A stretch of DNA of 64,000 nt from Acidimicrobiia bacterium (GCA_035464675.1 DATHSA010000054.1:7998-71997), one strand, 5' to 3'; positions 26,837 to 64,000 are shown, counted from the first letter of the stretch. The notes: a model not told the origin generated them from the sequence alone. A program made the numbers and translations.

Positions 26837-26911
26837 GGTGACCGAGGGGACTCGAACCCCCGACCTCCAGGGCCACAACCTGGCGCTCTAACCGCCTGAG
26901 CTACGGTCACC
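26837..26911 (-). tRNA. tRNA-His (anticodon GTG) with encoded G-1
   Basis: G-GTGACCG...CCAGG-TTGTGGC-CCTGG...GGGGGTTCGAGTCCCCT-CGGTCAC-C. Confidence 0.9.
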
Positions 26912-26915
26912 ATGC

Positions 26916-26985
26916 GGAGCCACAGGCTCCAATTCCTCCAGGGCCGCATCACACAGGCAGCTCTACCGCCTGAGCTACGGTCACC
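26916..26985 (-). pseudogene. Decayed tandem copy of tRNA-His (pseudo-tRNA)
   Basis: The 5' leader, acceptor and D-arm (tccgcatgGGTGACCGTAGCTCAGGCGGTAGAGC) are almost identical to the functional copy. The anticodon and T arms and the 3' acceptor do not fold. Confidence 0.6.
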
Positions 26986-27031
26986 ATGCGGAACTGCTGT
27001 TCCGAACCATGCGGGAACCCGGCGCTCGCAG

Positions 27032-27104
27032 TGCCCCCGGAGGGATTCGAACCCCCGACCAAGAGCTTAGAAGGCTCCTGCTCTGTCCACTGAGCTACAG
27101 GGGC
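27032..27104 (-). tRNA. tRNA-Arg (anticodon TCT)
   Basis: GCCCCTGTAGCTCAGTGGAC...GGAGC-CTTCTAA-GCTCT...GGTTCGAATCC...CGGGGGCA. Confidence 0.9.
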
Positions 27105-27149
27105 GAGGTCCGAACACCCGCCGGGCGCTCCTCTCGGCGAGTGCCCGTC

Positions 27150-27221
<72 letters not shown>

Positions 27222-27396
27222 CGGTTCCCGGGGCAGGATAGACCGGAAGCCTCCGGTCTCCAGCTTCCCGCCTCCAGCAAGGAACGCCTCACGGGTCAGT
27301 CGTGTTTCCCGCGGGTATCGGCGTTTCTGGTGCCTCGCTTCAGCCGGCTTCGCACAGCCGTTGTCAGTGCCCAAGTCCGGCCGGGAACGAACAGGG

Positions 27397-27482
27397 TGCG
27401 GGCGGTGGGACTCGAACCCACAATGGACGTGAAGCCCACCGGGTCCTAAGCCCGGCGCCTGTGCCAATTCGGCTACACCCGC
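27397..27482 (-). tRNA. tRNA-Leu (anticodon TAG), long variable arm
   Basis: GCGGGTGTAGCCGAATTGGC...CCGGG-CTTAGGA-CCCGG, a long variable arm, GGTTCGAGTCC, then CGCCCGCA. Confidence 0.88.
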
Positions 27483-27488
27483 GGGACG

Positions 27489-27560
27489 TGGGTCGCCAGG
27501 GATTCGAACCCTGAACCTGCTGGTTAAGAGCCAGTTGCTCTGCCGTTGAGCTAGCGACCC
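27489..27560 (-). tRNA. tRNA-Lys (anticodon CTT)
   Basis: GGGTCGCTAGCTCAACGGCAGAGC...CTCTTAA loop...GGTTCGAATCCCTG-GCGACCCA. Confidence 0.85.
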
Positions 27561-27993
27561 AGAGGCAGGGTAGCAACGTCGAAATACCAGCCACCCTCGG
27601 CCAACTCGTCGATCCACACCATCGTGCGGACCCACCAATCGGTGCTGCGACGAGCCGCAACTCGGCAAACACCATGGGCGAGATGATTCTTTCGATGACC
27701 CGGGCCGCCGGCTCGATCGCCTTGATCTGCGCCCGCCGGCGCCCCTGAGTGCTCCGGCGCCCGTTGGGTCGTGGGGCTGTTCGTCTCCGCATGGCCGCCC
27801 TCTGTTCGGAGGTCGAGTCCACACCGCGGCACCACATCGACAGGGTCGGCTTCGACATCGGAAGGATCTCGGAGATCTCCGTCAGCGACAGGCCGCATGC
27901 GCGTAGCCGGCGAGCCAGACCGAACCTCTCGTCCCTGCTGAGGACGCTCCAACGACCCGCCGTGACGCGCAACTCATCTGGAACCAGATCCAT
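27551..27993 (-). pseudogene. HTH-domain ORF wedged between divergent tRNAs, apparently frameshifted
   Basis: ATG 27993 gives MDLVPDELRV...RLRACGLSLTEISEILPMSKPTLSMWCRG (HTH-like). Third-position GC drops near 27645-27650 and resumes in another frame (STDWWVRTMVWIDELAEGGWYFDV...), which ends at a TAG inside the tRNA-Lys 5' end. The unshifted frame reads through two tRNAs. Confidence 0.3.
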
Positions 27994-28045
27994 GCCGACA
28001 AGGTATGGGAATGCTGTGACGCGACTTCGTGTCACAATTCGGCGA

Positions 28046-28119
28046 CGGGCTGTGGCGCAGTTTGGCAGCGCGCGTGCTTTGGGAGCACGAGGCCGCCGGT
28101 TCGAATCCGGCCAGCCCGA
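28046..28119 (+). tRNA. tRNA-Pro (anticodon TGG)
   Basis: CGGGCTGTGGCGCAGTTTGGC...CGTGC-TTTGGGA-GCACG...GGTTCGAATCC...CAGCCCGA. Confidence 0.9.
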
Positions 28120-33907: not shown

Positions 33908-35272
33908 CTAACCGGCCGCCAGCACCGTCAGGCCGAGCGCGGTGAGGGCAACCATCAGAGCCAGCATGGCGTACTGGGTGCGCACCGCTCGGGACCCCGG
34001 GAAGACGGCGAGCGCCCGATCGTGAGCGAGTGCCACGCCCACGACGTGGCCACCGACGATCGCCGTCAACTGCACCCACCACACCGCGACCGGAGGGATC
34101 CACGTGTAGTCGGGCCCGTAGTCGATGGTGCCGAACAGGTTCCACCCGAGGCCCAGTGGGTCACTGAGCGCCGGGATCAACAGCTGCCCCTCGAAGGCGA
34201 TGAGGGTGAAATAGTGGGCAAAGGCATAGGCGAGGGCGATCGGCACCAGGGTGTGCGCAAACGACCCCGCCACCTCGGCGGGACCGGGGCCGTTGGGACC
34301 GGCGATCCGGGACGCCCACCACGACGCCGCGGCATACGCGCCGCCGATGACGGCCACGACCGCGACCAGGGCGATCGTCTTGAACCACATCGTGGACTGG
34401 TTGGCCCCCGCCAGCGCGAACGAGAAGTCGTCCCACCATGGGGTCCCCGAAATCCCGTCGTAGGTGACGGTGCCGATCATCGCTACGACGAACGCTGCGA
34501 GCCCGGGCCACCGGGGAAGGACCGGGAGAGCGCGCAGCCACCCCCTCCAACCGATGCGACCATCGGGCCTCCTGCCCAGCGGAGCAATCCCGCTGAGCAA
34601 GCGCTGATAGACGGACAACGCCTCGGTGGACGCCACGACGCGGTCGATACCGAACCTGAAGGCCAGCCCCATGATCGCCACCGTGTAGACCAGAGTCGCC
34701 AGGCCGAGGGTCTGAGGATCACCGGACTCCGGGTGCACGAGCTCGAGCCAGACGATGCCCATGAACACGATCGCCGCCGGCCACACGCCCTCGGGCCCCG
34801 GTCCGGAAGGTCCTTCGAGGCGGGCGAGACGACCCAGAGTCCGCCACGGGCTTATGACGGCCCAAAGGTTTCCGGCCATTGCAGCGGCGAACGGGAGCAC
34901 CAGCCAGACGACCACCCAGACCGCCACCGGCGCGATATTGCTCCGGGCATCGACGTCGCCGGAGAGCCCGGCAGCGATGACCAGGACAAGCCCGAACAGG
35001 CCGAGCGCCGACAGGATCCCGCCGAGCCGGCTCGGTAGCGCCCACCCACCACGCCATCTGGGCCCATCCTGAAGGCGCGGGCTCGGCCACAGGACCGCCA
35101 GCGCGCCAAACGTGATCAGCAGCACCACGCCGGCTCCGACCAGGAAGTACTCCAGTGGCACCGGGAGATCGCTCCTGCCTCCGATCCCGTGCGCCGAGGC
35201 GATGCCCGGGACGACAAGCGCCGCGAGGACCACGGCCAGGACGACTCCCCCGCGACGGACGCGTGGCGTCAC
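33908..35272 (-). CDS. Polytopic membrane protein with predicted N-terminal His after signal cleavage
   Basis: Signal sequence ...VVPGIASA-HGIGGRSDLPVPLEYF, then about 10-12 TM helices. Family not recognised. Confidence 0.65.
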   Translation of the reverse strand: MTPRVRRGGVVLAVVLAALVVPGIASAHGIGGRSDLPVPLEYFLVGAGVVLLITFGALAVLWPSPRLQDGPRWRGGWALPSRLGGILSALGLFGLVLVIAAGLSGDVDARSNIAPVAVWVVVWLVLPFAAAMAGNLWAVISPWRTLGRLARLEGPSGPGPEGVWPAAIVFMGIVWLELVHPESGDPQTLGLATLVYTVAIMGLAFRFGIDRVVASTEALSVYQRLLSGIAPLGRRPDGRIGWRGWLRALPVLPRWPGLAAFVVAMIGTVTYDGISGTPWWDDFSFALAGANQSTMWFKTIALVAVVAVIGGAYAAASWWASRIAGPNGPGPAEVAGSFAHTLVPIALAYAFAHYFTLIAFEGQLLIPALSDPLGLGWNLFGTIDYGPDYTWIPPVAVWWVQLTAIVGGHVVGVALAHDRALAVFPGSRAVRTQYAMLALMVALTALGLTVLAAG

Positions 35273-35718
35273 GAGACCTGGAGCTCGACCAGCAATCGGT
35301 GAGAGTCCTCGAGTTCGACCTCGAAGATCCCCGGGATGTTCGCGGCGAACTCGATCACTGCGGGCTGGCCGGGTGCGATGTCGGCGGTGAGGTCGTATCC
35401 GTGGAGGTGCACCTCGTCGGTGGCATCCCCGGCGATGGTGAGCCGTATCCCGGTTCCCGTGGTGATCTGGATCCGCCCGGACGTCGGGATCCCCTCGACC
35501 CGCACCTCGGCGGACGAGCCAATCACCTCGATGACGATGTCGACGAACGAGTCCGCCGTCGTCGTGGTCGCGGGATTGCTGGTGCTCGGAACCGGCGGCA
35601 GGGTGGTCACCGACGCGGTCGTGGAGGGGGTGTCGGCACCCGTCGTGGTCGTCGCATCGTCGTCGCCACAGGCGGGGACGATGAACACGGCGATCGCGAT
35701 CAACAGGAGTCTGCGCAT
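35269..35718 (-). CDS. Cupredoxin-like lipoprotein
   Basis: MRRLLLIAIAVFIVPAC-GDDD lipobox, a Thr-rich linker, and a C-terminal beta-domain ...DEVHLHGYDL...PGIFEVELEDSH. The stop overlaps the start of the downstream membrane protein. Confidence 0.6.
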   Translation of the reverse strand: MRRLLLIAIAVFIVPACGDDDATTTTGADTPSTTASVTTLPPVPSTSNPATTTTADSFVDIVIEVIGSSAEVRVEGIPTSGRIQITTGTGIRLTIAGDATDEVHLHGYDLTADIAPGQPAVIEFAANIPGIFEVELEDSHRLLVELQVS

Positions 35719-35746: not shown

Positions 35747-36064
35747 TCAGTCGTCGAGGTCGGTGCGGATCTCCCAACGGATCTCGCCGCCTTCCAGGCG
35801 AGCCTTCACCCGATACTCGACCGAGGTGTCGTGAGTTTCGAACCGGACCTCGATCTCGTTCGCGCCGCTCGTGTTGATCCGGCCGAAAACCCTGCGCGGG
35901 AATCGTCGAGGCCAGCGTCAGAATCCCCGCGGTGGCGGTGACGGTCCCCGAGCGAAGTGGATGTGGTCGAGGGGCTACCCGCAGTCGAGCTCGTCGTCGG
36001 CGACGCCGACAGCCAGGGCCATGAAACCGATGACCGCTCCTACCGCAGTCAGTCTCTTGAACAT
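35747..36064 (-). pseudogene. Decayed small secreted or membrane-anchored protein
   Basis: A strong RBS (GAAGGAGATCGACCG) precedes ATG 36064, giving MFKRLTAVGAVIGFMALAVGVADDELDCG, then an in-frame TAG (35975-35977). Third-position GC indicates coding continues, shifts frame twice, and returns to ...NTSGANEIEVRFETHDTSVEYRVKARLEGGEIRWEIRTDLDD-TGA. Confidence 0.4.
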
Positions 36065-36175
36065 CGGTCGATCTCCTTCAGTTGGTGGTGGACACGCTGA
36101 ATCGTCCGTCGCACCGCCACACGGGCGCTTGAGTTCCGCCTTGGGGAATCCTGAAGCGGGGCACCCGCCCTGGAC

Positions 36176-36209
36176 GCGCTCGAGGGGCCCCGAAGAGCCC
36201 CTCGAGCGC
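36176..36209. terminator. 13-bp perfect palindromic stem-loop
   Basis: GCGCTCGAGGGGC cccgaaga GCCCCTCGAGCGC, about 150 nt downstream of the MoaD-like stop. No U-tract. Confidence 0.45.
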
Positions 36210-36358
36210 GAGGTAGCCGATCAGGCGCTCGCTGCGCCCCATCCGATCCCGGTCGAAGATGCGGCGGCGTCGGCGAGAACCGCGTACTCCGGGTCCGGTC
36301 TCGATCCCTCGGCGAGCGTCGGTGGGTACGCCGACCGAGGGATGGCGTGGATGATCAC

Positions 36359-36691
36359 CTATTCGCCGTGGCCATTCCCCGAATCGGCACGCCCTAATCC
36401 TCCAATTCGAGACGCTCCCCCTGAGACCGCCTGGAGGATCGTGACCACCGCTCCGGGTTCGATGGGGGCCGCCAGCCGCTCGGCGTCGCGGGCGGCGCGG
36501 CCGTCGTGGAAGACCGACACGTTGGGCCTGACCGAGCCGGTCTCGTCGAAGACGTGCACCCGCAGCTGCGGGAGAACCCTGAACAGCCCTTCGAGGGCCT
36601 CGCCGACCGTGGAGGCCTCGACTGGGATCTCCTTGCGTCCGTCGCCGATCTCCGCCAGCAGCGACGGGATGCGAACGGTGGCCGGCGGCAT
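36359..36691 (-). CDS. MoaD/ThiS/CysO-like ubiquitin-fold protein with 18-aa extension beyond the GG
   Basis: ATG 36691 shares 1 nt with the upstream TGA. MPPATVRIPSLLAEIGDGRKEIPVEASTVGEALEGL...EPGAVVTILQAVSGG is followed by ASRIGGLGRADSGNGHGE. Confidence 0.7.
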   Translation of the reverse strand: MPPATVRIPSLLAEIGDGRKEIPVEASTVGEALEGLFRVLPQLRVHVFDETGSVRPNVSVFHDGRAARDAERLAAPIEPGAVVTILQAVSGGASRIGGLGRADSGNGHGE

Positions 36692-37731
36692 CAGACCTCG
36701 AGCACGCCGACGCTGAGGATGCGGGGAAGCACTTCCGGCAACGCGGTCCACGTGTCGCCGCCATCGCCGGTGAGATGAACCGTGCCGGCCGTGGTCCCCA
36801 CGTAGACGCCGCCCGCTCCATCGGTGGCGATGGCGTCGCGCAGGACGCCGGCGTACACCGGCTCCTCGGGATGGCCCTCCCCCGACACGTGCCACGAGTC
36901 ACCGCGGTCCGTGGACCGGTATACCCGGAACTCGCCACCGAGCGGCATGCGGTGCTCGTCGCTTTCCAGGGGAACCACGAACAGCGCCCCCGAAGCCCCA
37001 TCGCGAGCGATCGGGAACCCGAACCGCGCCGGAAGGCCCTCCTCGATCCGCTGCCAGGAGTCACCCCCGTCATGGGTCCGGTAGACCCCGGTGTGCTCCT
37101 GACGCCAGATCGTGTCGGGATCGTCGGGGTCGGCCACGAGGCAATGCACGCAATAGCCGATCTCCTCGTCGTCCGGGTCGGGTGCCGGCTTGGTCACACC
37201 CTTGTTGGCGAGCTGCCAGGAGTCACCCCCGTCCTCGGTACGGAACACACCCACCGCGGACACGCCGAGCCACATCCGCTCGGCGTCGTTCGGGTCGAAG
37301 AGCAGGCGATGAGCCGCCAGCCCACCGAACCCGGGCTGCCAGCCAGGCCGAGTGGCATGCTCATTGAACCCCGGGACCGGCCGCCACGACGCACCGTCGT
37401 CGTCGCTGCGGAACAAGCCCGCCTGATCGACCGCGGCGTAGGTGGTGTCTCCCGAGGTGGCGATCGTCCACACGTTGTTGAGCTTGCGATCGCCCCCCTC
37501 GGGCCACGCCGGACCATCCACGATCTGCTCCCACTCACCGAGATCGGCGCTGCGATGGATGGCCGCTCCGAACCAGTTCGACCCCGTGGCAAGCAGATGG
37601 TCGCCCGACGGCGACCGCCCGAAGGTCGTCACCGCCCATCCCTTGAACTGGGGCCCCGACAGATCCCATCGGGAGCCATTCCCCCGCAGGAAGAACGCCC
37701 CTTTGACCGTGCCGATACCGATCGTCGTCAT
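36691..37731 (-). CDS. BNR/Asp-box repeat beta-propeller protein (sialidase-like fold)
   Basis: Five SxDxGxxW-type boxes: SDDDGASW, TEDGGDSW, THDGGDSW, STDRGDSW, TGDGGDTW. No signal peptide. Confidence 0.8.
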   Translation of the reverse strand: MTTIGIGTVKGAFFLRGNGSRWDLSGPQFKGWAVTTFGRSPSGDHLLATGSNWFGAAIHRSADLGEWEQIVDGPAWPEGGDRKLNNVWTIATSGDTTYAAVDQAGLFRSDDDGASWRPVPGFNEHATRPGWQPGFGGLAAHRLLFDPNDAERMWLGVSAVGVFRTEDGGDSWQLANKGVTKPAPDPDDEEIGYCVHCLVADPDDPDTIWRQEHTGVYRTHDGGDSWQRIEEGLPARFGFPIARDGASGALFVVPLESDEHRMPLGGEFRVYRSTDRGDSWHVSGEGHPEEPVYAGVLRDAIATDGAGGVYVGTTAGTVHLTGDGGDTWTALPEVLPRILSVGVLEV

Positions 37732-39401
37732 GTCGACTCCTCGGCCATGTGGTCGCGCATCACGGTGAGCCCGGTCGACCCGATGGCGAGCAGCCGGGCG
37801 TGGAAGTCCTTCTGATCGAACGCCGATCCCCGGCGCCGCCGCGCATCGGAGCGCAGATCATGGATGGCCTGCTGGCCCACCTTGTACGAGATGGCCTGCC
37901 CGGCCCATCCCAGATACCGGTTCATCTCGGAGACCGCGACGTCGTGCTCCTGCGCCGCATACTCTTCGAGCATCTCGACGCCGAGATCGAACGACCAGCG
38001 CTCTCCGGGATGGAACGGCTGGCCCTCGGGGACGGGCAGGTCGAGGTGCGACCCTATGTCTATGACGACCCGGCAGGCACGGAGCATCTCTGAGGAGAGC
38101 TTCCCCATCCTGTAGTCGGGCTTCTCGAGATAGCCCAGTTCGTCCATGAGATCCTCGGCATACAGCGCCCACCCCTCGCCCGATCCCGAGTACCACACGA
38201 GGAGTTTCTGCAACCGGGACACCCGGTCGCCGGCGGTCATCTGGAGTCCGCTCTGGAGGTGGTGGCCGGGGAACCCCTCGTGGTACGCAGTGGACACCTG
38301 ATCGAAGAGGGGGACCACCTGCGTTTCTCCGATCGACCACCAGACCGTACCGGGCCGGGTGAAGTCCTCACTGGGGCTCACGTAGTAGGCGCCGAGGGAT
38401 CCTCCCGGAGGCGCCATCTTCACGTCGACACGCCGAATCGGCTCGGGGACCTCGAAGTGTGCGCCCTCGAGGTCCGAAAGGGCGACCTCCAGCCTCTCCT
38501 GCATCAGATCCCGGAACTCCTGCTGGCTTTGGGTGGCCCGACCCGGATCCGTCTGGAGCAGGTGAAGCACCTCGCGGAGTTCGGCCTCGGGCAGGATCTC
38601 GTTCGCCACCTCCGACATCGCAGCGCGGATCCGTGCCACCTCCTCCCAACCCCAGTCGTAGGTGGCCCTGGGCTCGATGTCGGCGCCGAGAAACTTCCGG
38701 GCCAGGCGCACGTACCGCTCCTCTCCCACGCCGTCCGCGTCGATGGCATCCGGGAGATACGTCGACTCGAGATACCCGGCGATTGCCCCGTACGCCTGCT
38801 TCGCCGTGGCGACACCGTCGCCGAGCCGCGCAAGCAACCCCTCGTCGGCGACCTCCGCGGCCGCGCCGGGCAGTGTGTCGAAGAACGACCCGTCGGCGGC
38901 GTAGTTGCGGGCCTGACGCGCCGCCTCGATCACCTGCCGGCGCGCCACGGTCATTCCACGCGACCGCCCCAGTTCGAGTGTCTGCCGGTATCCGTCCAGG
39001 GCATCGCCGAGGCCCTCGAGACGGGAGGCGACGTTGGTCCAGCCGTCGGCGGTCGAGGTGTCCATGTGGTCGAAGACCTCCCGGATGTCCTGGATCGGCG
39101 ACGCGATGCTGTTCAACTCGAGGAGGTGCTCGTCCGCGTCGTGCCAGGCGAGTTCGTCGGCCGCGAACTGGACGGCGACGCGGTGAGCCAGACGCCCCCA
39201 CGGCTCGTCGGGTACCGGTGTGGCTTCGACCCTGCGCAGTTGGGACCGGATCAGGTCTGCGGTCGACTCGTACCCCGCGGGCGAGAAGTCGTTCATCTCG
39301 TGCTCGTGGCCCGGCACGCCGAGATAGGTCGCCAGCATGGGCAGATGCTGGACCAGCTCGTCCACCATGTCGCTGCCCAACTGATAGATGTCATCTGTCA
39401 A
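37728..39401 (-). CDS. DUF885 family protein (putative metallopeptidase-like)
   Basis: 557 aa. The AYHEGFPGHHLQ motif and overall length are typical of DUF885. ATGA overlap with the BNR gene. Confidence 0.75.
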   Translation of the reverse strand: MTDDIYQLGSDMVDELVQHLPMLATYLGVPGHEHEMNDFSPAGYESTADLIRSQLRRVEATPVPDEPWGRLAHRVAVQFAADELAWHDADEHLLELNSIASPIQDIREVFDHMDTSTADGWTNVASRLEGLGDALDGYRQTLELGRSRGMTVARRQVIEAARQARNYAADGSFFDTLPGAAAEVADEGLLARLGDGVATAKQAYGAIAGYLESTYLPDAIDADGVGEERYVRLARKFLGADIEPRATYDWGWEEVARIRAAMSEVANEILPEAELREVLHLLQTDPGRATQSQQEFRDLMQERLEVALSDLEGAHFEVPEPIRRVDVKMAPPGGSLGAYYVSPSEDFTRPGTVWWSIGETQVVPLFDQVSTAYHEGFPGHHLQSGLQMTAGDRVSRLQKLLVWYSGSGEGWALYAEDLMDELGYLEKPDYRMGKLSSEMLRACRVVIDIGSHLDLPVPEGQPFHPGERWSFDLGVEMLEEYAAQEHDVAVSEMNRYLGWAGQAISYKVGQQAIHDLRSDARRRRGSAFDQKDFHARLLAIGSTGLTVMRDHMAEEST

Positions 39402-41492: not shown

Positions 41493-41570
41493 GACCTCAG
41501 GTTACGCCTCTCATCACGGGGCCCCCGTGTAATCTCCGCCCTGAACCCCCGTCTGACCCCTGGCATCGCC

Positions 41571-42722
41571 ATGCTCGTAGCGGCCCTCGACCCGGAGCTC
41601 TATCTCAAGTCCCAGCGCACTCAGCGGCGCATGGGGCGGGTGCTCGCGGCCAATGTCGTCGCAGCGCTGCCGGGAGCGGAGGTCAAGCGCCTCGCCGGAC
41701 ATCGCCTGCTCATCACCACCGATCACGCCGCTGCCGTCGAGCGGCTGAGCACGGTGTTCGGAATCGCCGCGGTCGAGATCGTCGAGCGCCTCGACGCCAC
41801 CGACATGGATGCCCTCGCCGATGAGGTCGCAGAGCGGATGGGTCCGGTCGTCGCCGGGAAGACGTTCGCGGTGCGCCCACGGCGGATCGGCACCCACACC
41901 TGGAACTCCCAGGACCTCGCCGTCGCCACCGGGGCTCGACTGGTCCGGGCCGGAGGACGCGTCGATCTCACGAACCCCGAAGTGACCGTGGTGGTGCGCG
42001 TCGTGGAGCGGACAGCCGACCTGACGGTCGAGCGCGTCCCGGCCGCCGGGGGTATGCCCCTCGGCACGCAGGGCAACGCCCTGGTGATGTTCAGCGGCGG
42101 CATCGACTCCCCCGTCGCCTCATACATGGTCGCCCGACGCGGCGTGTCCCTCGACTACATCCACTTCTCGCTGGGCTGCGGACAAGCCGACCATGCGGCC
42201 GCCATCGCCCACGATCTGAGCACCCGCTACGGCCACGGGTCGGACCCGCTCTGGATCGTGTGCGACATCGAAGCTGCGGTACCCGAGCTGACCCGCCGCG
42301 TCGACGCGCGGCTTCGGCAGATGGCGCTCAAGGCGCTCATGTACCGGGCCGCGGAGCAGATCGCCGCCGACCTCGCCGAGACCCGGGCACTGGTCAACGG
42401 CGAGTCGCTGGGCCAGGTGTCGACCCAGACCCTGGACAACCTTGCATCACTCGACCGCCTGGTCGACATCCCCGTGCTCCGGCCCCTGCTCGGCCTCGAC
42501 AAACTCGAGATCCGCCGCCGTTCCGAGGCGATCGGGACGTATGAGGCGTCGTCGCGAAGCCGCGAGTTGTGCGACATCTCGCAGGGTTCCAGGGTGTCGG
42601 TCGCCACCCGGCCGGGCCGGCTCATGGATGTCGGCGAGGCGATCGAAGATCTCGTGGCCCACACCGTGACGACGGCCAAGCAGCAACACCTTCGCGACTG
42701 GATGCCCGGCTCGATGGTCTAG
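41571..42722 (+). CDS. thiI: tRNA 4-thiouridine synthase ThiI-like (THUMP + PP-loop)
   Basis: ATG 41571. PP-loop FSGGIDSPVASYM, preceded by a THUMP-like domain. Confidence 0.8.
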   Translation: MLVAALDPELYLKSQRTQRRMGRVLAANVVAALPGAEVKRLAGHRLLITTDHAAAVERLSTVFGIAAVEIVERLDATDMDALADEVAERMGPVVAGKTFAVRPRRIGTHTWNSQDLAVATGARLVRAGGRVDLTNPEVTVVVRVVERTADLTVERVPAAGGMPLGTQGNALVMFSGGIDSPVASYMVARRGVSLDYIHFSLGCGQADHAAAIAHDLSTRYGHGSDPLWIVCDIEAAVPELTRRVDARLRQMALKALMYRAAEQIAADLAETRALVNGESLGQVSTQTLDNLASLDRLVDIPVLRPLLGLDKLEIRRRSEAIGTYEASSRSRELCDISQGSRVSVATRPGRLMDVGEAIEDLVAHTVTTAKQQHLRDWMPGSMV

Positions 42723-45864: not shown

Positions 45865-45887
45865 AGTCGGCCCGGGAATGAGCAGAG

Positions 45888-46234
45888 TGGAGGTGCGGGG
45901 AGTCGAACCCCGGTCCTGTGAGCTCTCGACGTCGGTTCTCCGAGCGCAGCCGATAGATCGTTTCGGGGGACGGGACCCTATCGGCGGGCGGACCCGATCC
46001 CTAGCCGGAAGTGTCTTGACCCGCCGGTCCCGGCATCCCGGCGGGAGCATCCCCCATTGCGTCGCCCGGATCCGGCGAGGGGGGAGCCCTCCGGTCGGAC
46101 GGGCCGCTTATTTAGGCAGCCAGTGCGAAGTTGTCTTCGGCACGTATGTGTTTCCCGGTTCTTTAGCGAGGACTCCGGGGACCTCGGCTCGCTACCGACG
46201 CTTTGATTCTCACAGTCGAAACCATGTCACCCCC
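45888..46234 (-). ncRNA. ssrA: tmRNA (SsrA)
   Basis: The 5' end GGGGGTGACATGGTTTCGAC pairs with the 3' end CACCTCC-A (G3:U70). T-arm GGGGTTCGACTCCCC. Tag reading frame GCC GAA GAC AAC TTC GCA CTG GCT GCC TAA gives AEDNFALAA (46112-46141). Adjacent to smpB. Confidence 0.88.
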
Positions 46235-46401: not shown

Positions 46402-46860
46402 CTAGTCGATGCTCCGGTACTTCATCGCCTTGTCCATCTCCCGATCCGCCTGGCGCCTCTTGATTGTCTCGCGCTTGTCGATCCGGGTCTTGCCTTTGCC
46501 GAGGCCCAACTCGACCTTGGCCTTCCCGTCCTTGAAGTACAGCGACGTGGGGATCAGGGTCAGACCCTTCTGGGCGAGTGCGGCTCCTATGCGGGCGATC
46601 TCGTTGCGGTGCAGCAGGAGCTTCCGGGGACGATCCGGGTCGTGTCCGCCCTCATGGGCGTATTCGTAGGGGGCGATGCGGAGCCCGTAGAGCCACATCT
46701 CGCCGTCCTTGACAGCGGCGTACGAGTCCTTGAGGTCGGCTCGCCCGTTGCGCAGGCTCTTCACCTCGGACCCGAGCAGCACCAACCCGGCCTCGTAGGT
46801 CTCCGAGATGGCGAAGTCGAATCGGGCCCGCCGGTTGGTGGCAATGGTCTTCACTCCCAC
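46402..46860 (-). CDS. smpB: SsrA-binding protein SmpB
   Basis: ...IATNRRARFDF...YEAGLVLLGSEVKSLR...LLLHRNEI.... Confidence 0.95.
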   Translation of the reverse strand: MGVKTIATNRRARFDFAISETYEAGLVLLGSEVKSLRNGRADLKDSYAAVKDGEMWLYGLRIAPYEYAHEGGHDPDRPRKLLLHRNEIARIGAALAQKGLTLIPTSLYFKDGKAKVELGLGKGKTRIDKRETIKRRQADREMDKAMKYRSID

Positions 46861-46911
46861 GAGAAGACCCTAAGGCCGGTGTCGTTCGTTCGGACGGGTG
46901 GGCTCCTCTTT

Positions 46912-46967: not shown

Positions 46968-47849
46968 TCAGTCCCTCAGGAAGCCCCACATCCCGAAGGC
47001 GCTCCCGAGGAGACCGGTACCGGCGCCGAAGCCGAGCACGATGAGAGCCTGGCGAATCATGAAGTCCGTCGGCGGATTCAGTGACCCGGGATCGGTGGCC
47101 GTCGACAGCAGCTCAGCGATCGAGCCACCGGCCGCCCACACGAGGGCTATGGCGAGCACGGCTCCGATCACGCCCTCGATCACACCCTCGAGAAGGAACG
47201 GGATGCGAACGAACCAGTTTCCCGCACCCACCAGCTTCATGATCCCTATCTCGTCTCGTCGGGCGAAGATTGCGATCCGGATCGTGTTGGCGATGAGAAC
47301 CACCGCGGCCAGGGCGAGGACGATCCCGATCCCGAGCGCAAACGTCCTCATCTTCCCCGCCCGTGCCACCAGATTGTCGATCGCCTCGTCTGCCGATGAA
47401 ACCTGGAACACCCCGGGGACGACGACGAGCCGATCGCGGATCGTCGAGTAGTCGGCGGCCTCGGTGGGTCGTATCCGGAGAGATGCCGGCAGGATCGACG
47501 GGTCCTCCTCGACTATCTCGATGAGGGAGGGCTGATCCGAGAAGATCTCGCGGAACTCCTCGAGTGCCTGCGTCTTCGTGTAGTAGATGACCTCGTCGAC
47601 CTCGTCCCAGGTCCGGATGTCAGCCTGCATGGAGTCGATTTCCTCCAGGCTCAGGTCGTCGCCGAGGAAGGCGATGACACGAACGTTGTCGTCCCACCTG
47701 CCGATGTCCTGGTCGATCGACCAACCCACGATCCTCGTGCCGAACACCAGTGCCAGCATCACGAAGACGGCGACGACGGCAGCAAAGACCACCAGGACGT
47801 TTCGGCGGAGGTTCGAGATCGCCTGCTCGAGGATGTACTGGAACCGCAT
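46968..47849 (-). CDS. ftsX: Cell division ABC transporter permease FtsX
   Basis: ATG 47849 gives MRFQYILEQAISNLRRN.... Four TM helices with a large periplasmic loop. Follows ftsE. Confidence 0.9.
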   Translation of the reverse strand: MRFQYILEQAISNLRRNVLVVFAAVVAVFVMLALVFGTRIVGWSIDQDIGRWDDNVRVIAFLGDDLSLEEIDSMQADIRTWDEVDEVIYYTKTQALEEFREIFSDQPSLIEIVEEDPSILPASLRIRPTEAADYSTIRDRLVVVPGVFQVSSADEAIDNLVARAGKMRTFALGIGIVLALAAVVLIANTIRIAIFARRDEIGIMKLVGAGNWFVRIPFLLEGVIEGVIGAVLAIALVWAAGGSIAELLSTATDPGSLNPPTDFMIRQALIVLGFGAGTGLLGSAFGMWGFLRD

Positions 47850-47850
47850 G

Positions 47851-48588
47851 TCAGCCTTCGGTGGCCTCTTGCTCGCCGGTGGCACTGGCTCCGACCGGCT
47901 CCTCCACACCCATCTGGTAAGCGCCGCGGGTCTGGTCGCGGATGACCCTGCCACGCTCGAGAGCCACCACCCGGCGTCGCATGGCGTCGACGATCGCGTG
48001 GTCGTGAGTCGCCATCACAACGGTCGTGCCGGTGCGGTTGATACGGTCGAGAAGCCGCATGATCCCCACCGAGGTCGCCGGGTCGAGGTTCCCGGTCGGC
48101 TCGTCGGCCAGGAGGATCAGGGGCCGGTTGACGAACGCCCGGGCGATCGAGACCCGCTGCTGCTCACCGCCGGACAACTGATTGGGGAGGCGGTCCGACT
48201 TGGCGGCGAGGCCGACCAGCTTGAGCACCTGAGGCACCTGCGACCGGACGACGTTCTTGGGACGGCCGATCACCTCGAGAGCGAACGCGACGTTCTCGTA
48301 GACCGTCTTGCTGGGGAGCAGCTTGAAGTCCTGGAAGACGGTGCCGATGGAACGTCGGAGCATGGGGATCTTCCAGGCCGGCAACGCGGTGATCTCCTTG
48401 CCGGCGACCCAGATCTGCCCTTCCGTGGGAAGCTCCTGGCGGAGCATCAGGCGGATCAACGTCGATTTTCCCGAGCCCGAAGGACCGACGAGGAAGACGA
48501 ATTCGCCCTTGGAGATCTCGAGGTCCACGTCCGTGACGGCGACGATGTCGCCGTCGTAGACCTTCGCTACGTCCTGCAACCGGATCAT
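47851..48588 (-). CDS. ftsE: Cell division ATP-binding protein FtsE
   Basis: [30 protein letters not shown]. Confidence 0.93.
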
Positions 48589-48725
48589 GTACGCCTCTCG
48601 GAGTGCTGCCGCGGTGTCCCTTCGGCACCCACTCCGCCCGCGACGCTCGCGGCGAGGTTAGTGACCGACTTGGGAAAGCCCGATGATTCTGGTGCATCGC
48701 CGGAGATAGGCCAATCGGGCCGGAC

Positions 48726-48815
48726 GAGAGCGAAGGGCGGAGAGCAGAGGGCGAAACCTCGGCATCGATGCCCGCTCGGGGCGGAGAGGCGGAAGGGTAA
48801 GGCAGGAGGCCGGGA
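48726..48815. repeat. Purine-rich period-7 tracts downstream of prfB
   Basis: gagagcg aagggcg gagagca gagggcg (48726-48753) and gcggaga ggcggaa gggtaag gcaggag gccggga (48781-48815), ending at the prfB stop. Confidence 0.55.
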
Positions 48816-48816
48816 C

Positions 48817-49930
48817 CTAGCCCGCGGACTCCGCCTGTTCTCGCCGCCACTGGAGGTAGGCGTCGACGAATCGGCCGATCTCGCCGTCGAGGACGCCGTT
48901 GACGTTGCCGATCTCCACGTCGGTCCTGAGGTCCTTGACCATCTGATACGGCTGGAGGACATACGATCGGATCTGCCGGCCCCAGGCCGCCTCGCCCTGC
49001 TCACCGCGGATCTCGTCCAGCTGCTCCTCACGATCCCGGCGGGCGCGCTCTGCGAGCCGGGCGGCAAGAAGGGTCATGGCGCGGTTCCGATTCTGCAGCT
49101 GGGAGCGCTCAGCCTGGCAGGCGACGACGATCCCGGTCGGGATGTGGGTGATCCTCACCGCGGAATCGGTCTTGTTGACATGCTGCCCGCCTGCTCCCGA
49201 GGCCCGGAAGGTGTCGATCCGCAGCTCCTCCGGGTCGATGGCCACGTCCTCGATCTCGACCTCCGGTATGACATCGACCCCGGCAAAGGACGTGTGTCGT
49301 CGCGAGGCCGAGTCGAAGGGACTTATGCGAACGAGGCGGTGCACTCCACGCTCCCCCTCCAGGGTCCCGTAGGGACGATCACCCCGGACCGTGATCGTCG
49401 CCGACCTGATCCCGGCCTCCTCGGCCTCCAGGTACTCGTCGACCTCGACCTCGAAGCCCTCGCGCTCCAGGAATCGCAGGTACATGCGAAGCAGCATCTC
49501 CGCCCAATCGGAGGCATCGACCCCGCCGGCGCCGGCGTGGACGCTCAAGATCGCCGGGCTGTCGTCATACTCGCCGAAGTACAACGCCTCGCGCTCCAGT
49601 TTCGACAGATCCTCGTCGATCCGGCCCAATTCGACGGCGACGTCGGATGCGGCACCGGCATCGGACTCCTCCTCGGAGAGCTCCAGAAGCACCTCGGCGT
49701 CGTCGATCGCGGCGGCCAGTGAGCCGACCCGGTCGATGATCCCTTCGTAGCGAGAGAGGGTTCGAGTCACCTCGAGGGCGTTGTCACGGTCGTCCCAGAG
49801 ATGAGGGTCGGCCGACCGGTCTCTCAGGTCGTCGAGTGCGGCGCGCTTCGCTTCGACGTCAAAGGAACCTCCTGGCGTCGTCGAGGCGCGATTGGAGCGA
49901 GGCGATGAGGGCGCGGGGATCGTCGTGCAT
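48817..49930 (-). CDS. prfB: Peptide chain release factor 2, with programmed +1 frameshift
   Basis: ORF0 is ATG 49930 ... AGG AGG TTC CTT TGA C (TGA at 49859-49861). A +1 shift joins it to ORF 48817-49770 (LDVEAKRAALDDLRDRSADPHLWDD...). The SPF and GGQ (SGAGGQHVN) motifs are present. Confidence 0.93.
49858..49873 (-). promoter_or_regulatory. RF2 autoregulatory frameshift site
   Basis: An internal SD-like AGGAGG sits 3 nt upstream of the CUU UGA C slippery/stop motif. Confidence 0.9.
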
Positions 49931-62324: not shown

Positions 62325-62361
62325 CTCGTTCCCCGTTTCCCGTTACCCGTTGCCCGTTACC
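62325..62361. repeat. Heptanucleotide tandem array CCCGTTN x5, overlapping a CDS 3' end
   Basis: ctcgttc cccgttt cccgtta cccgttg cccgtta cc. The minus-strand TAA at 62343-62345 and the last residues GVTGNG are encoded inside the array. Confidence 0.88.
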
Positions 62362-64000
62362 CCAGGCTCTGGCCCCCGAAGGCGCCTCCTGACGGCCATT
62401 GCGAGTAGCCCGATCAGGGTCAGCGCGGTCAGCCACTTCCCCGCCATCTCGGCCCAGGTGTCCGAGAAGCTGATCACCACGTGCTCTTGAGTGGGCACGA
62501 CGACCATCAGCGAGGGCGCCGCCCGGTACGGACCGTCGGCACCGTCGGCCTGCCAGTTGGGGAAGTAGGACACCTTCACGAGGTGAGGGACCCCGACTGC
62601 GGTGGTGTCGAACTCGATCCGATGGTCTTCGACCGAGATGTTCGTGATCGTCCCGGCCTCGAGGATCCGGGGCCGCGCCGTGGTCGCGACGTCGTCGATG
62701 CGCGGCCAATCGGATGGGCCGGTCTCGACCAGCCAGCGGTCGAGCGCATTGACGTCGTCGTACCACTCGAGCGCGGCGTCGTAGAACGAGGCGTCGCCGT
62801 CCCAGACGGCCGGGATGAAGGCGCCCGCCTCCACGAGCTGCGTCTCAGGCAGGGCGAACACCGTGAACGGCGGGCTCTCGGCGAGGACCTCGAGCCCGTA
62901 CTCCTCGGCTGCCCCGCGTGCCGTCTCCGTGTAGGACACGTAGTACTCGACGCCGTACACGTCGAGGTGACGGATCGCCCGGTCGAAGTTCATGCCGCGG
63001 TACTCGAGGCCCGAGACGGGATTCGAGGGCCGCTGGGAGACTTCGCTGGCATTGAGAAAGTGGAACGGCGTCGTCAGGGACGACTCGAAGAGGAGGCCCT
63101 CCATCGAGGGATGCCCCTCCGACCAGTACCCGGTGAGCATGAGCGCCATCGGCGTCCCGTAGCGGTTCATGTCGTTGTTCGCCTCCCACATGACCCGCCC
63201 TGGAGGCAGCGTATCGAGCTCCTGCATCAGGCCCTGGTACTCGGCCCACCTGTCGGTGTGGAGCACCCACTCCCCGTCTCCGGTGAGGGCGTACTCCTGC
63301 TTCCCCTCGTATCCCTCGTAGTTCCAGGCAGCCCAGTACGGGGTGCGTTGGATGCCGACGATTCCGGCGACGAGGAAGAAGATGGCCGCCGCACCGGCGG
63401 CGATCCATCTCGTCGCGTCACCCCCTCGCAATCGGCGGGCGATGGCGACGACGGCAGCACCGACGGCGATACCGGCGAGGAGATGGACGAAGTAGTACCA
63501 GTAGGGCAGGAGCCGGGCGTTGTAGAGCTTCCGGTAATCGATGAACTGGATCACGTAGTAGCCGGCGACCGGAAGGATCAGCATCGCAACGACCGGCGAT
63601 ATCGGATGGCGCCGCGCCACCGACCACACCAGTCCGGCGGCGGCGAGGACCACGAGTGGCCACAGCTCTCGCGGGAACACCTTGTCGATGCCTTCGACCG
63701 GGAACCACCCCATGTCCGAAGTGAGTCCCACCCGCGCAAGAAGGGGCACCGCCCAGAACGCGGCGATCCCGAAGCCGAGGGCCCAGGATCCGAGCACGGC
63801 AGAGGGGCCCTTCTTCCTGAACAGGAGCGGGATCGTCGCCAGGATGATCAGCCCCGTCGTGATGATGTGTGACATCGCCGTGAGAGCCAGAACCACGCCG
63901 GGCCCGATCGAGAAGCCCCGGCCCGAGTGGACGTTCTTCACGAGCATCCCCAGATAGACCATCGAGAGCGCAAAGGACCACGAGAAGGAGTACTCGCCGG
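62343..64000 (-). CDS. Large polytopic membrane protein with extracytoplasmic C-terminal domain (possible GT-C type glycosyltransferase), 5'-truncated by the window edge
   Basis: ORF 62343-63962. The frame stays open with TM-like sequence to nt 64000. About 10 TM helices plus a soluble domain of about 250 aa. Convergent with a GT2 polyprenol-phosphate sugar synthase. Confidence 0.6.
   Translation of the reverse strand, partial: GEYSFSWSFALSMVYLGMLVKNVHSGRGFSIGPGVVLALTAMSHIITTGLIILATIPLLFRKKGPSAVLGSWALGFGIAAFWAVPLLARVGLTSDMGWFPVEGIDKVFPRELWPLVVLAAAGLVWSVARRHPISPVVAMLILPVAGYYVIQFIDYRKLYNARLLPYWYYFVHLLAGIAVGAAVVAIARRLRGGDATRWIAAGAAAIFFLVAGIVGIQRTPYWAAWNYEGYEGKQEYALTGDGEWVLHTDRWAEYQGLMQELDTLPPGRVMWEANNDMNRYGTPMALMLTGYWSEGHPSMEGLLFESSLTTPFHFLNASEVSQRPSNPVSGLEYRGMNFDRAIRHLDVYGVEYYVSYTETARGAAEEYGLEVLAESPPFTVFALPETQLVEAGAFIPAVWDGDASFYDAALEWYDDVNALDRWLVETGPSDWPRIDDVATTARPRILEAGTITNISVEDHRIEFDTTAVGVPHLVKVSYFPNWQADGADGPYRAAPSLMVVVPTQEHVVISFSDTWAEMAGKWLTALTLIGLLAMAVRRRLRGPEPGVTGNG

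Follow-up and report, generated by a model that had tools for sequence, protein, structure and literature searches.

A conserved gene pair joins a ThiS/MoaD-type ubiquitin-like protein to an Asp-box beta-propeller in bacteria and Thermoplasmatota archaea

Ubiquitin-like proteins (Ubls) of the ThiS/MoaD type are the prokaryotic roots of ubiquitin signaling. To our knowledge, the known carriers are each defined by a partner enzyme (MoaE, ThiG, CysM, TtuA, or a JAMM peptidase), no beta-propeller is among these partners, and the beta-propeller fold is not known to use thiocarboxylates. For archaeal SAMP systems, an activating enzyme (E1), a Ubl, and a JAMM peptidase suffice. Here we describe a locus in a 64-kb, 67% GC stretch of an Acidimicrobiia metagenome-assembled genome (MAG; DATHSA010000054.1:7998-71997, hereafter the window), in which the gene for a ThiS/MoaD-type Ubl adjoins that for an Asp-box beta-propeller. 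Conservation of this pair extends from Acidimicrobiia as far as Pseudomonas and Thermoplasmatota, and the pair has gone unnoticed under the routine label "exo-alpha-sialidase"; a structure of the propeller family, 3B7F, has been available since 2007. The open-access literature that we searched yielded no account of the Ubl-propeller pair, and the texts of the two main comparative genomics studies of prokaryotic Ubls (PMC1779556 and PMC2948915) mention no propeller, BNR, or sialidase.

The window carries three minus-strand genes that overlap at their junctions, as an earlier note on this DNA had claimed: the stop codon of a DUF885 gene overlaps the propeller start (ATGA at 37728-37731), and the propeller stop overlaps the Ubl start (TGATG at 36689-36693) (Table 1). 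Two NCBI proteins, P0001 and P0046, are 100% identical to products of the window. Pfam scans of about 50 open reading frames (ORFs) across the whole window detected no ThiF/MoeB E1, JAMM, MoaE, ThiG, or pyridoxal phosphate (PLP, CysM) domains, although the crude gene caller, based on GC content at third codon positions (GC3), may miss a small gene; the earlier note's statement that none of these is nearby is therefore upheld.

Comparison with described carriers places the Ubl within the ThiS/MoaD superfamily, of the CysO/SAMP/MoaD type. The best solved matches to its profile are CysO of the Mycobacterium tuberculosis CysO-CysM-Mec system (3DWG, E = 1e-16) and the A. orientalis carrier 4N6E (5e-15), which share its length of about 90 residues and its ...V(S/A)GG end; like CysO, it would be expected to rely on an E1 in trans, as with MoeZR. 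Unlike CysO, the Ubl gene is not clustered with a CysM (PLP) or Mec (JAMM) gene, and its partner is a beta-propeller. The archaeal SAMP1 and MoaD-type Ubls of Haloferax are also close: SAMP1 structures match the profile (3PO0, 4HRO, and 2L83, about 1e-9), the SAMP1 model NF041918 is the best NCBIfam match (50 bits), the genes for Ubl, E1, and protease are dispersed there too, and the pair itself occurs in Thermoplasmatota. However, nothing points to protein conjugation here, the SAMP1 score lies below the equivalog cut-off of 60 bits, and SAMP genes lack the constant propeller neighbor. The score against MoaD TIGR01687 (32.4 bits) likewise falls below its cut-off of 49.5, and because both the SAMP1 and the archaeal MoaD cut-offs are missed, we regard the Ubl as a distinct subfamily; by the tests run it lies outside CysO, SAMP1, and MoaD. 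Unlike MoaD, it has no MoaE in the window, and MoaA lies downstream of the pair in only a few planctomycete loci. Natural carrier-partner fusions (below) recall MoaX, a fused MoaD-MoaE, and would imply cleavage at Gly-Gly (GG) if the carboxylate is used, but the fused partner here is a propeller rather than MoaE. Occasional residues after GG, with the same implication of cleavage, recall QbsE/QbsD and HcyS/HcyD, to which the locus nonetheless does not belong, as its tails are sporadic and unconserved rather than designed pro-sequences and no JAMM is linked. By analogy, the locus may work like a carrier and partner of the MoaD-MoaE or CysO-CysM kind, or possibly like SAMP and JAMM.

The conserved unit is two genes, propeller and Ubl, and not three. 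A Ubl-alignment search of GTDB genomes and JGI metagenomes returned 154 loci, and with loci from exact protein look-up we analyzed 158. A propeller homologue directly adjoins the Ubl gene in 141/144 loci with sufficient flanking sequence. Among 120 unique loci in which the propeller precedes the Ubl, the median gap is 2 nt, 53/120 pairs overlap, and 117/120 lie within 50 nt of each other; the gene order is reversed in 14 loci. The pair spans at least 12 bacterial phyla (Actinomycetota, Planctomycetota, Chloroflexota, Acidobacteriota, Bacteroidota, Hydrogenedentota, Verrucomicrobiota, Nitrospirota, Nitrospinota, Calditrichia, Bacillota, and Gemmatimonadota), and a search begun from the propeller side also recovered it in Thermoplasmatota archaea. 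Cultured carriers include Pseudomonas aeruginosa, Ralstonia solanacearum, Cupriavidus metallidurans CH34, Burkholderia, Paraburkholderia, Mitsuaria, Nonomuraea, and Arthrobacter. The P. aeruginosa pair is WP_023090681.1 and WP_003123007.1, whose genes may tentatively be equated with PA1355/PA1356, and in cultured bacteria NCBI labels such pairs "MoaD/ThiS family protein" and "exo-alpha-sialidase." In the Burkholderiaceae R. solanacearum and C. metallidurans CH34 (plasmid collection), propellers 28-29% identical to that of the window have a MoaD/ThiS gene directly upstream. All-against-all ORF clustering found no third conserved partner, with no other neighbor cluster in more than 18/74 loci. 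A Pfam census of 130 flanking ORFs from 40 loci was heterogeneous, headed by extracytoplasmic function (ECF) sigma factors (7), Ser/Thr kinases (5), DUF885 (3), and MoaA (3), with no JAMM or CysM (PLP) among the 25 most frequent neighbor families listed. No E1 was linked to the pair in about 150 loci.

That Ubl and propeller are directly linked, whether physically or functionally, is supported by natural fusions. HMMER, run exhaustively against 1.84 billion representative proteins, yielded 625 family representatives at E <= 1e-30. Among the matches listed are fusions of about 450 residues, in which about 7 to 13 linker residues connect a Ubl ending in ...SVAGG or ...ISGG with the first propeller strand. 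One fusion lineage comprises four members (P0199 and P0316-318, with 69-76% identity to P0199), and we take P0232 to be an independent fusion because its linker differs.

In Planctomycetota loci L007, L009, and L010 (10341-11420), a MoaA-like radical S-adenosylmethionine gene (Mob_synth_C) lies directly 3' of the Ubl gene, and the Ubl might double as MoaD in such MoaA-linked genomes. Ser/Thr kinase genes adjoin the pair in about 18 planctomycete loci (e.g., L007-L010, about 6.0-8.9 kb). Neighbors related to cysteine or thiols comprise a CysRS-like gene in Thermoplasmatota (L079:6197-7420), cysS in Burkholderia, the Cys-tRNA deacylase YbaK/EbsC in P. aeruginosa, and the ergothioneine genes egtB-egtD divergent from a propeller without a Ubl in Rhodobacter (further coordinates L174:764-2158, L166:5164-5640, and L163:1586-3767); they are too few for a claim of enrichment. 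In both P. aeruginosa and L080, the pair has VOC/glyoxalase genes as flanking neighbors.

The propeller belongs to the 3B7F-like Asp-box family, which it matches over its full length in both sequence and fold. Its Pfam matches are to BNR and Sortilin-Vps10 Asp-box families. 3B7F aligns with residues 6-341 (E = 1e-48, 32% identity), and the AlphaFold2 model (mean predicted local distance difference test score, pLDDT, 92; predicted template modeling score, pTM, 0.91) matches that structure by Foldseek with a template modeling (TM) score of 0.89. 3B7F (Reut_B4987/YP_299179.1 of Ralstonia eutropha JMP134, a structural-genomics entry annotated as "glycosyl hydrolase, BNR repeat") is listed with seven blades, five Asp-boxes, and function not known (PMC2716378). 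The earlier note had described a five-bladed Asp-box propeller: the five canonical Asp-boxes are there, but the blades number seven, as judged from the seven four-strand groups of our model, the 3B7F match, and that listing. The 3B7F match gives fold, not mechanism. Further Foldseek neighbors are weaker and include GH74 half-domains, the sortilin Vps10 domain, Ycf48, and DAIP. Although sortilin and Ycf48/HCF136 are likewise Asp-box propellers, they match with TM scores of only 0.4-0.6 and identities of 14-17%, lack the His/Asp axial constellation described below, and have unrelated biology (a eukaryotic sorting receptor and photosystem II assembly). Structures of both were solved with bound peptide ligands, and we take both to bind C-terminal tails (neurotensin C-terminus in 3F6K, D1 tail in 5OJR).

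Conservation within the propeller points to its central axis. Residues W131, H141, D167, H196, Q211, H213, F237, F239, R261, R298, and D304 are invariant in all clades, including proteobacterial and archaeal members, fusions, and propellers without a Ubl. In the strand pattern of the model, successive blades have H141, H196, and D304 where their innermost strands begin, which would place these residues around the central axis, on the face used by propeller enzyme active sites. The position of Cys194 is Asp in 3B7F and the proteobacterial clade and Thr in one locus, and a Cys-to-Asp swap is typical of a metal ligand. With three invariant His, two Asp, two Arg, and this Cys/Asp position, the axial pocket looks like a putative metal site with no obligatory Cys nucleophile. 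The protein is predicted to be cytoplasmic, since inspection, without a signal-peptide predictor, revealed no apparent signal peptide and the chain enters the first beta-strand directly. Propeller alignments of 61 or 48 sequences contain no invariant Tyr or Glu.

Two glycosidase identities were considered for the propeller, which shares Asp-box repeats and a propeller fold with GH33 sialidases and GH74 xyloglucanases, and both were rejected. The exo-alpha-sialidase (GH33) label is unsupported because no signal peptide is apparent and the Tyr/Glu nucleophile pair is not conserved, leaving only the Asp-box repeats in common. GH74 enzymes have two tandem seven-bladed propellers that form the catalytic cleft, whereas the window protein is a single 346-residue propeller that aligns with one half of GH74 structures (target-normalized TM about 0.3).

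The C-terminal extension of the window Ubl is an evolutionary accident of this genome. The protein matches ThiS PF02597 over residues 12-92 with 29.5 bits (cut-off 22.5) and the profile ends exactly at G91-G92; because it ends there, ASRIGGLGRADSGNGHGE is a genuine 18-residue extension of the ORF, and the earlier note correctly described a CysO/MoaD-type protein with 18 residues after GG. These residues are all that separates the window Ubl from a GG at the very C-terminus, the state of 33/45 close homologues (55-87% identity; those ending at GG are 90-93 residues long) and of 65/74 Ubls from species-representative genomes. The remaining 12/45 close homologues have mutually dissimilar tails of 3-37 residues, and in the remaining 9/74 the tails measure 1-27 residues. 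Across 45 Ubl sequences the invariant positions are GG and 10 others, with GG kept in tailed and fused forms too, and the window Ubl, 87% identical to its nearest homologue, keeps all 12 family-invariant residues. In L075, the closest relative with the stop codon in place, the gene ends GGG GGC TGA, followed by TCTCCGCGGATTCGAGGATTAG, where the window has GGG GGA GCG TCT CGA ATT GGA GGA TTA G. Several substitutions and a 3-nt indel distinguish the two at the former stop, and the window reads on to the next in-frame TAG. Because the aligned DNA matches past the L075 TGA, the tail codons are homologous to the L075 3' untranslated region (UTR). Judged from this alignment, the window tail is read-through of a former 3' UTR after recent stop-codon loss, a one-off rather than a family feature. 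The proposal that the tail is a maturation pro-sequence does not survive, as orthologues mostly end at GG, an outcome that the earlier note itself had named as refuting, and where tails occur neither their length nor their sequence is conserved. The post-GG extension and its processing by DUF885 become minor matters.

DUF885 is an operon neighbor in one Acidimicrobiia clade only and lies outside the conserved module. The assignment itself is secure: the protein matches Pfam PF05960 over the full length of the family (1-532 of 532, E = 6e-135), and its H374-E375-GFPG-H380-H381 motif (HE-x4-HH, not the canonical HExxH) and E409 are invariant in 12 orthologues, in agreement with the earlier note, which had singled out HEGFPGHH. 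It has no signal peptide and matches the uncharacterized structure 3IUK (E = 5e-108); a profile search of the PDB with E up to 10 returned only uncharacterized DUF885 structures (3IUK, 3O0Y, and 3U24) and noise, with no characterized peptidase. DUF885 lies beside the pair in 3/74 genome loci and 12/80 metagenome loci, in all of which the Ubl is at least 62% identical to that of the window (linked loci are L001, L003, L004, L075-78, and L082-L095). The closest clade keeps the whole order ThiI-x-AzlD-AzlC-DUF885-propeller-Ubl. Synteny of all three genes is thus not seen beyond this clade. What stands of the proposed uncharacterized Ubl or sulfur-transfer module is a GG-type Ubl tied to a propeller as strongly as any operon partners, with no E1 or JAMM nearby, and what falls is DUF885 membership and the tail.

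We favor, with a probability of roughly 0.4, a reading in which the Ubl would be activated by an E1 encoded elsewhere and its GG end received at the metal-like axial site of the propeller, probably for sulfur transfer. The Ubl resembles an activated carrier in its invariant GG and in having CysO and SAMP1 as its closest solved relatives, and the propeller resembles an enzyme in its invariant pocket. The GG carboxylate would be adenylated, and most likely also turned into a thiocarboxylate, by a generic MoeZ/MoeB/UbaA-type E1 whose gene lies elsewhere. The flexible VSGG tail would enter the axial pocket, where the sulfur would be used on a substrate, and the propeller would be to this Ubl what MoaE, ThiG, and CysM are to their carriers. 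As encoded, the window copy must presumably be trimmed to GG or else be inactive; DUF885 could be the trimming peptidase, in this clade only. An E1 in trans is plausible because none was found in the scanned window ORFs and because one MoeZR is reported to serve several carriers in mycobacteria (PMC3227635). A broader proposal, possible but doubtful, is that 3B7F-type propellers form a new enzyme class acting on Ubl Gly-Gly, either by thiocarboxylate-dependent sulfur insertion or as a non-JAMM metallohydrolase that matures or deconjugates the Ubl, and that the pair is a widespread minimal prokaryotic Ubl system. With the two genes linked, there is a definite hypothesis that genetics can address in tractable hosts such as P. 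aeruginosa, R. solanacearum, and C. metallidurans, and either a novel chemistry of sulfur insertion or a Ubl protease of a new kind might emerge.

Several observations weigh against sulfur transfer from an activated Ubl to the propeller. The Pfam census of flanking ORFs linked no substrate or pathway genes to the pair. Five propellers with the same invariant residues, two from Streptomyces and three from Rhodobacterales, have no adjacent Ubl, and P0188 (704 residues) is a Ser/Thr protein kinase fused N-terminally to a propeller with all invariant residues; from these orphans and the kinase fusion, propeller activity may be independent of the Ubl. The kinase fusion and the kinase neighbors together are hints that the propeller is able to act as a sensor or binding domain. 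An AlphaFold2 single-chain model of the natural fusion P0199 folds both domains (pTM 0.78) but predicts no confident docking between them, with VSGG at pLDDT below 50; its multiple sequence alignment held 4 fusions, 8 propellers, and 33 Ubls, as MAFFT misplaced the 92-residue Ubl rows with about 10 or more stand-alone propellers in the alignment. Finally, the fusions and the tails (12-27% of members) mean that in many cases the gene does not encode a free GG carboxylate. A sulfur carrier would for this reason need a separate protease, a need that does not arise if the propeller is a hydrolase or if the Ubl acts non-covalently.

Both of these latter possibilities draw on the same observations. 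As a Ubl hydrolase, the propeller itself would be the analogue of JAMM, Mec, or QbsD, its axial Zn-type His/His/His/Asp site cleaving after GG, maturing tailed or fused precursors, and freeing Ubl adducts or conjugates; the cassette would be a minimal SAMP-like modifier system of Ubl and maturase/deconjugase with its E1 in trans. Such an activity would account for tails and fusions with no further protease: random tails are tolerated in all clades, the VSGG linker of the modeled fusion is of low confidence, no JAMM turned up in the scanned window ORFs or the neighbor families listed, and the invariant His, Asp, and Arg residues with the Cys/Asp swap are compatible with a hydrolytic metal site. 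The minimal SAMP systems offer a precedent. In MoaX, too, cleavage at GG is reported to be required for activity (PMC4326299). However, the propeller has no likeness in sequence or fold to any peptidase (its Foldseek neighbors are GH74 halves, sortilin, Ycf48, and DAIP), orphan propellers and the kinase fusion retain the same site with no Ubl, a carrier and a peptidase alone leave no output step, and most Ubls already end at GG and need no maturation, and we consider this role unlikely. We think it rather unlikely, too, that the Ubl is not chemically activated at all and is instead a non-covalent subunit or regulator of an autonomous metal-dependent propeller enzyme or ligand sensor, with GG as a flexible docking tail. 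Fusions and tails would make a free carboxylate dispensable as encoded, orphans hold every invariant residue, the kinase-propeller fusion suggests a sensor-domain role, and E1 is linked in none of about 150 loci; but absolute GG invariance, combined with the C-terminal motif of ThiS/MoaD proteins, is what typifies E1-activated carriers, and the stop codon falls exactly after GG in 65/74 genes, a position under no selection if the carboxylate were irrelevant.

The two remaining explanations concern the operon and tail of the window itself. The earlier note's model, in which DUF885, propeller, and Ubl form one module and a zincin-like DUF885 trims the residues after GG or has some other part in processing or conjugating the Ubl, is now improbable. 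It has on its side the ATGA translational coupling, linkage of DUF885 throughout the closest clade, placement of DUF885 in the Peptidase_MA clan by Pfam (PMC12572635), the invariant HE-x4-HH with its downstream Glu, and a greater frequency of tails among DUF885-linked unique Ubls (6/14 versus 8/67 others, P = 0.013 Fisher's exact test, uncorrected for phylogeny). Yet of the loci with at least 3 kb of upstream sequence 76 lack DUF885 and 20 have it, and it is missing from the archaeal pair loci examined and from annotated loci of cultured bacteria. The tails within the clade are unrelated in sequence, several members are tailless, and peptidase activity is not known to have been demonstrated for any DUF885 member. 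We do not rely on the association of tails with DUF885, which is confounded by shared ancestry and GC content, the latter explaining it in part (5/31 loci without DUF885 are tailed in a subset matched at GC >= 0.64, against which the association would be expected to weaken). It is very improbable that the tail is an assembly or sequencing artifact or marks a Ubl copy in decay. The tailed sequence does come from a single MAG contig (P0001), and the small secreted-protein gene just 3' is truncated or frameshifted relative to L075. Against this, the substitutions and indel that separate the window from L075 are more than one base error, the family-invariant Ubl residues are intact at 87% identity to the nearest homologue, and similar independent tails occur in many other assemblies.

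Table 1. Features of the 64-kb window, with positions counted from its first nucleotide
Feature	Position	Strand	Remarks
DUF885 gene	37728-39401	-	557 aa, TTG start
Asp-box propeller gene	36691-37731	-	346 aa
ThiS/MoaD beta-grasp (Ubl) gene	36359-36691	-	110 aa, counted from the ATG used by homologues
Ubl core, residues 1-92, ending ...TILQAVSGG	36416-36691	-	PF02597; start overlaps propeller stop
Post-GG extension, 18 codons (ASRIGGLGRADSGNGHGE) and TAG stop	36359-36415	-	read-through of what is 3' UTR in the closest relative
GC-rich hairpin CUCGAGGGGCUC-UUCG-GGGCCCCUCGAG	36179-36206, within intergenic 36065-36365	-	about 150 nt 3' of Ubl stop
Small gene with Shine-Dalgarno and signal peptide (MFKRLTAVGAVIGFMALAVG...)	35747-36064	-	stop after 29 codons
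149-aa lipoprotein-like protein and 454-aa polytopic membrane protein, then ABC ATPase and ABC-2 permease	33908-35718	-	downstream of operon
ThiI-like tRNA sulfurtransferase	about 41570-42722	+	ThiI ferredoxin-like, THUMP, and PP-loop domains; rhodanese domain not detected
tmRNA (146 bits) adjoining SmpB; six-tRNA cluster 3' of trigger factor	45885-46234 (-), 46405-46869 (-), 26837-28119		ordinary housekeeping
Large ORF, coding-like GC3	47587-49719	+	711 aa, no Pfam match at E 1e-3 or 1e-4
Large ORF, coding-like GC3	62346-63998	-	551 aa, no Pfam match at E 1e-3 or 1e-4

Genes around the operon are mostly of housekeeping type (ValRS, MreBC, PBP2, RodA, Obg, ClpX, trigger factor, a tRNA cluster, tmRNA/SmpB, SecA, an FtsH-like protease, and AhcY). 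A defense-system identity for the three-gene operon was rejected, as PADLOC models of known anti-phage Ubl systems (Bil, CBASS Cap2/3, and others) gave zero matches for all three proteins. Between the sulfur-related ThiI-like gene and the operon lie AzlC, AzlD, and a further gene, a synteny confined to the closest clade (L075-L078). The small secreted-protein gene 3' of the operon is probably either a pseudogene produced by frameshift or deletion or the result of faulty assembly: its conserved C-terminal part (...EIEVRFETHDTSVEYRVKARLEGGEIRWEIRTDLDD) carries on in a different frame, and the intact homologue (L075:6635-7192) encodes 185 residues. Farther downstream, the lipoprotein-like and polytopic membrane proteins belong to no Pfam family, and their arrangement with the ABC ATPase and ABC-2 permease recurs in L076.

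A GC-rich hairpin downstream of the Ubl gene is probably the operon terminator or a conserved RNA element. Its stem reaches about 19 bp in the computed fold. The flanks have diverged between the window, L075, and L076, but the hairpin sequence is unchanged in all three. The hairpin lacks a U-tract, and no Rfam family matches it or the surrounding region. It occurs as a single copy in the window (0 expected by chance). The 301 nt around it fold with a z-score of -5.25.

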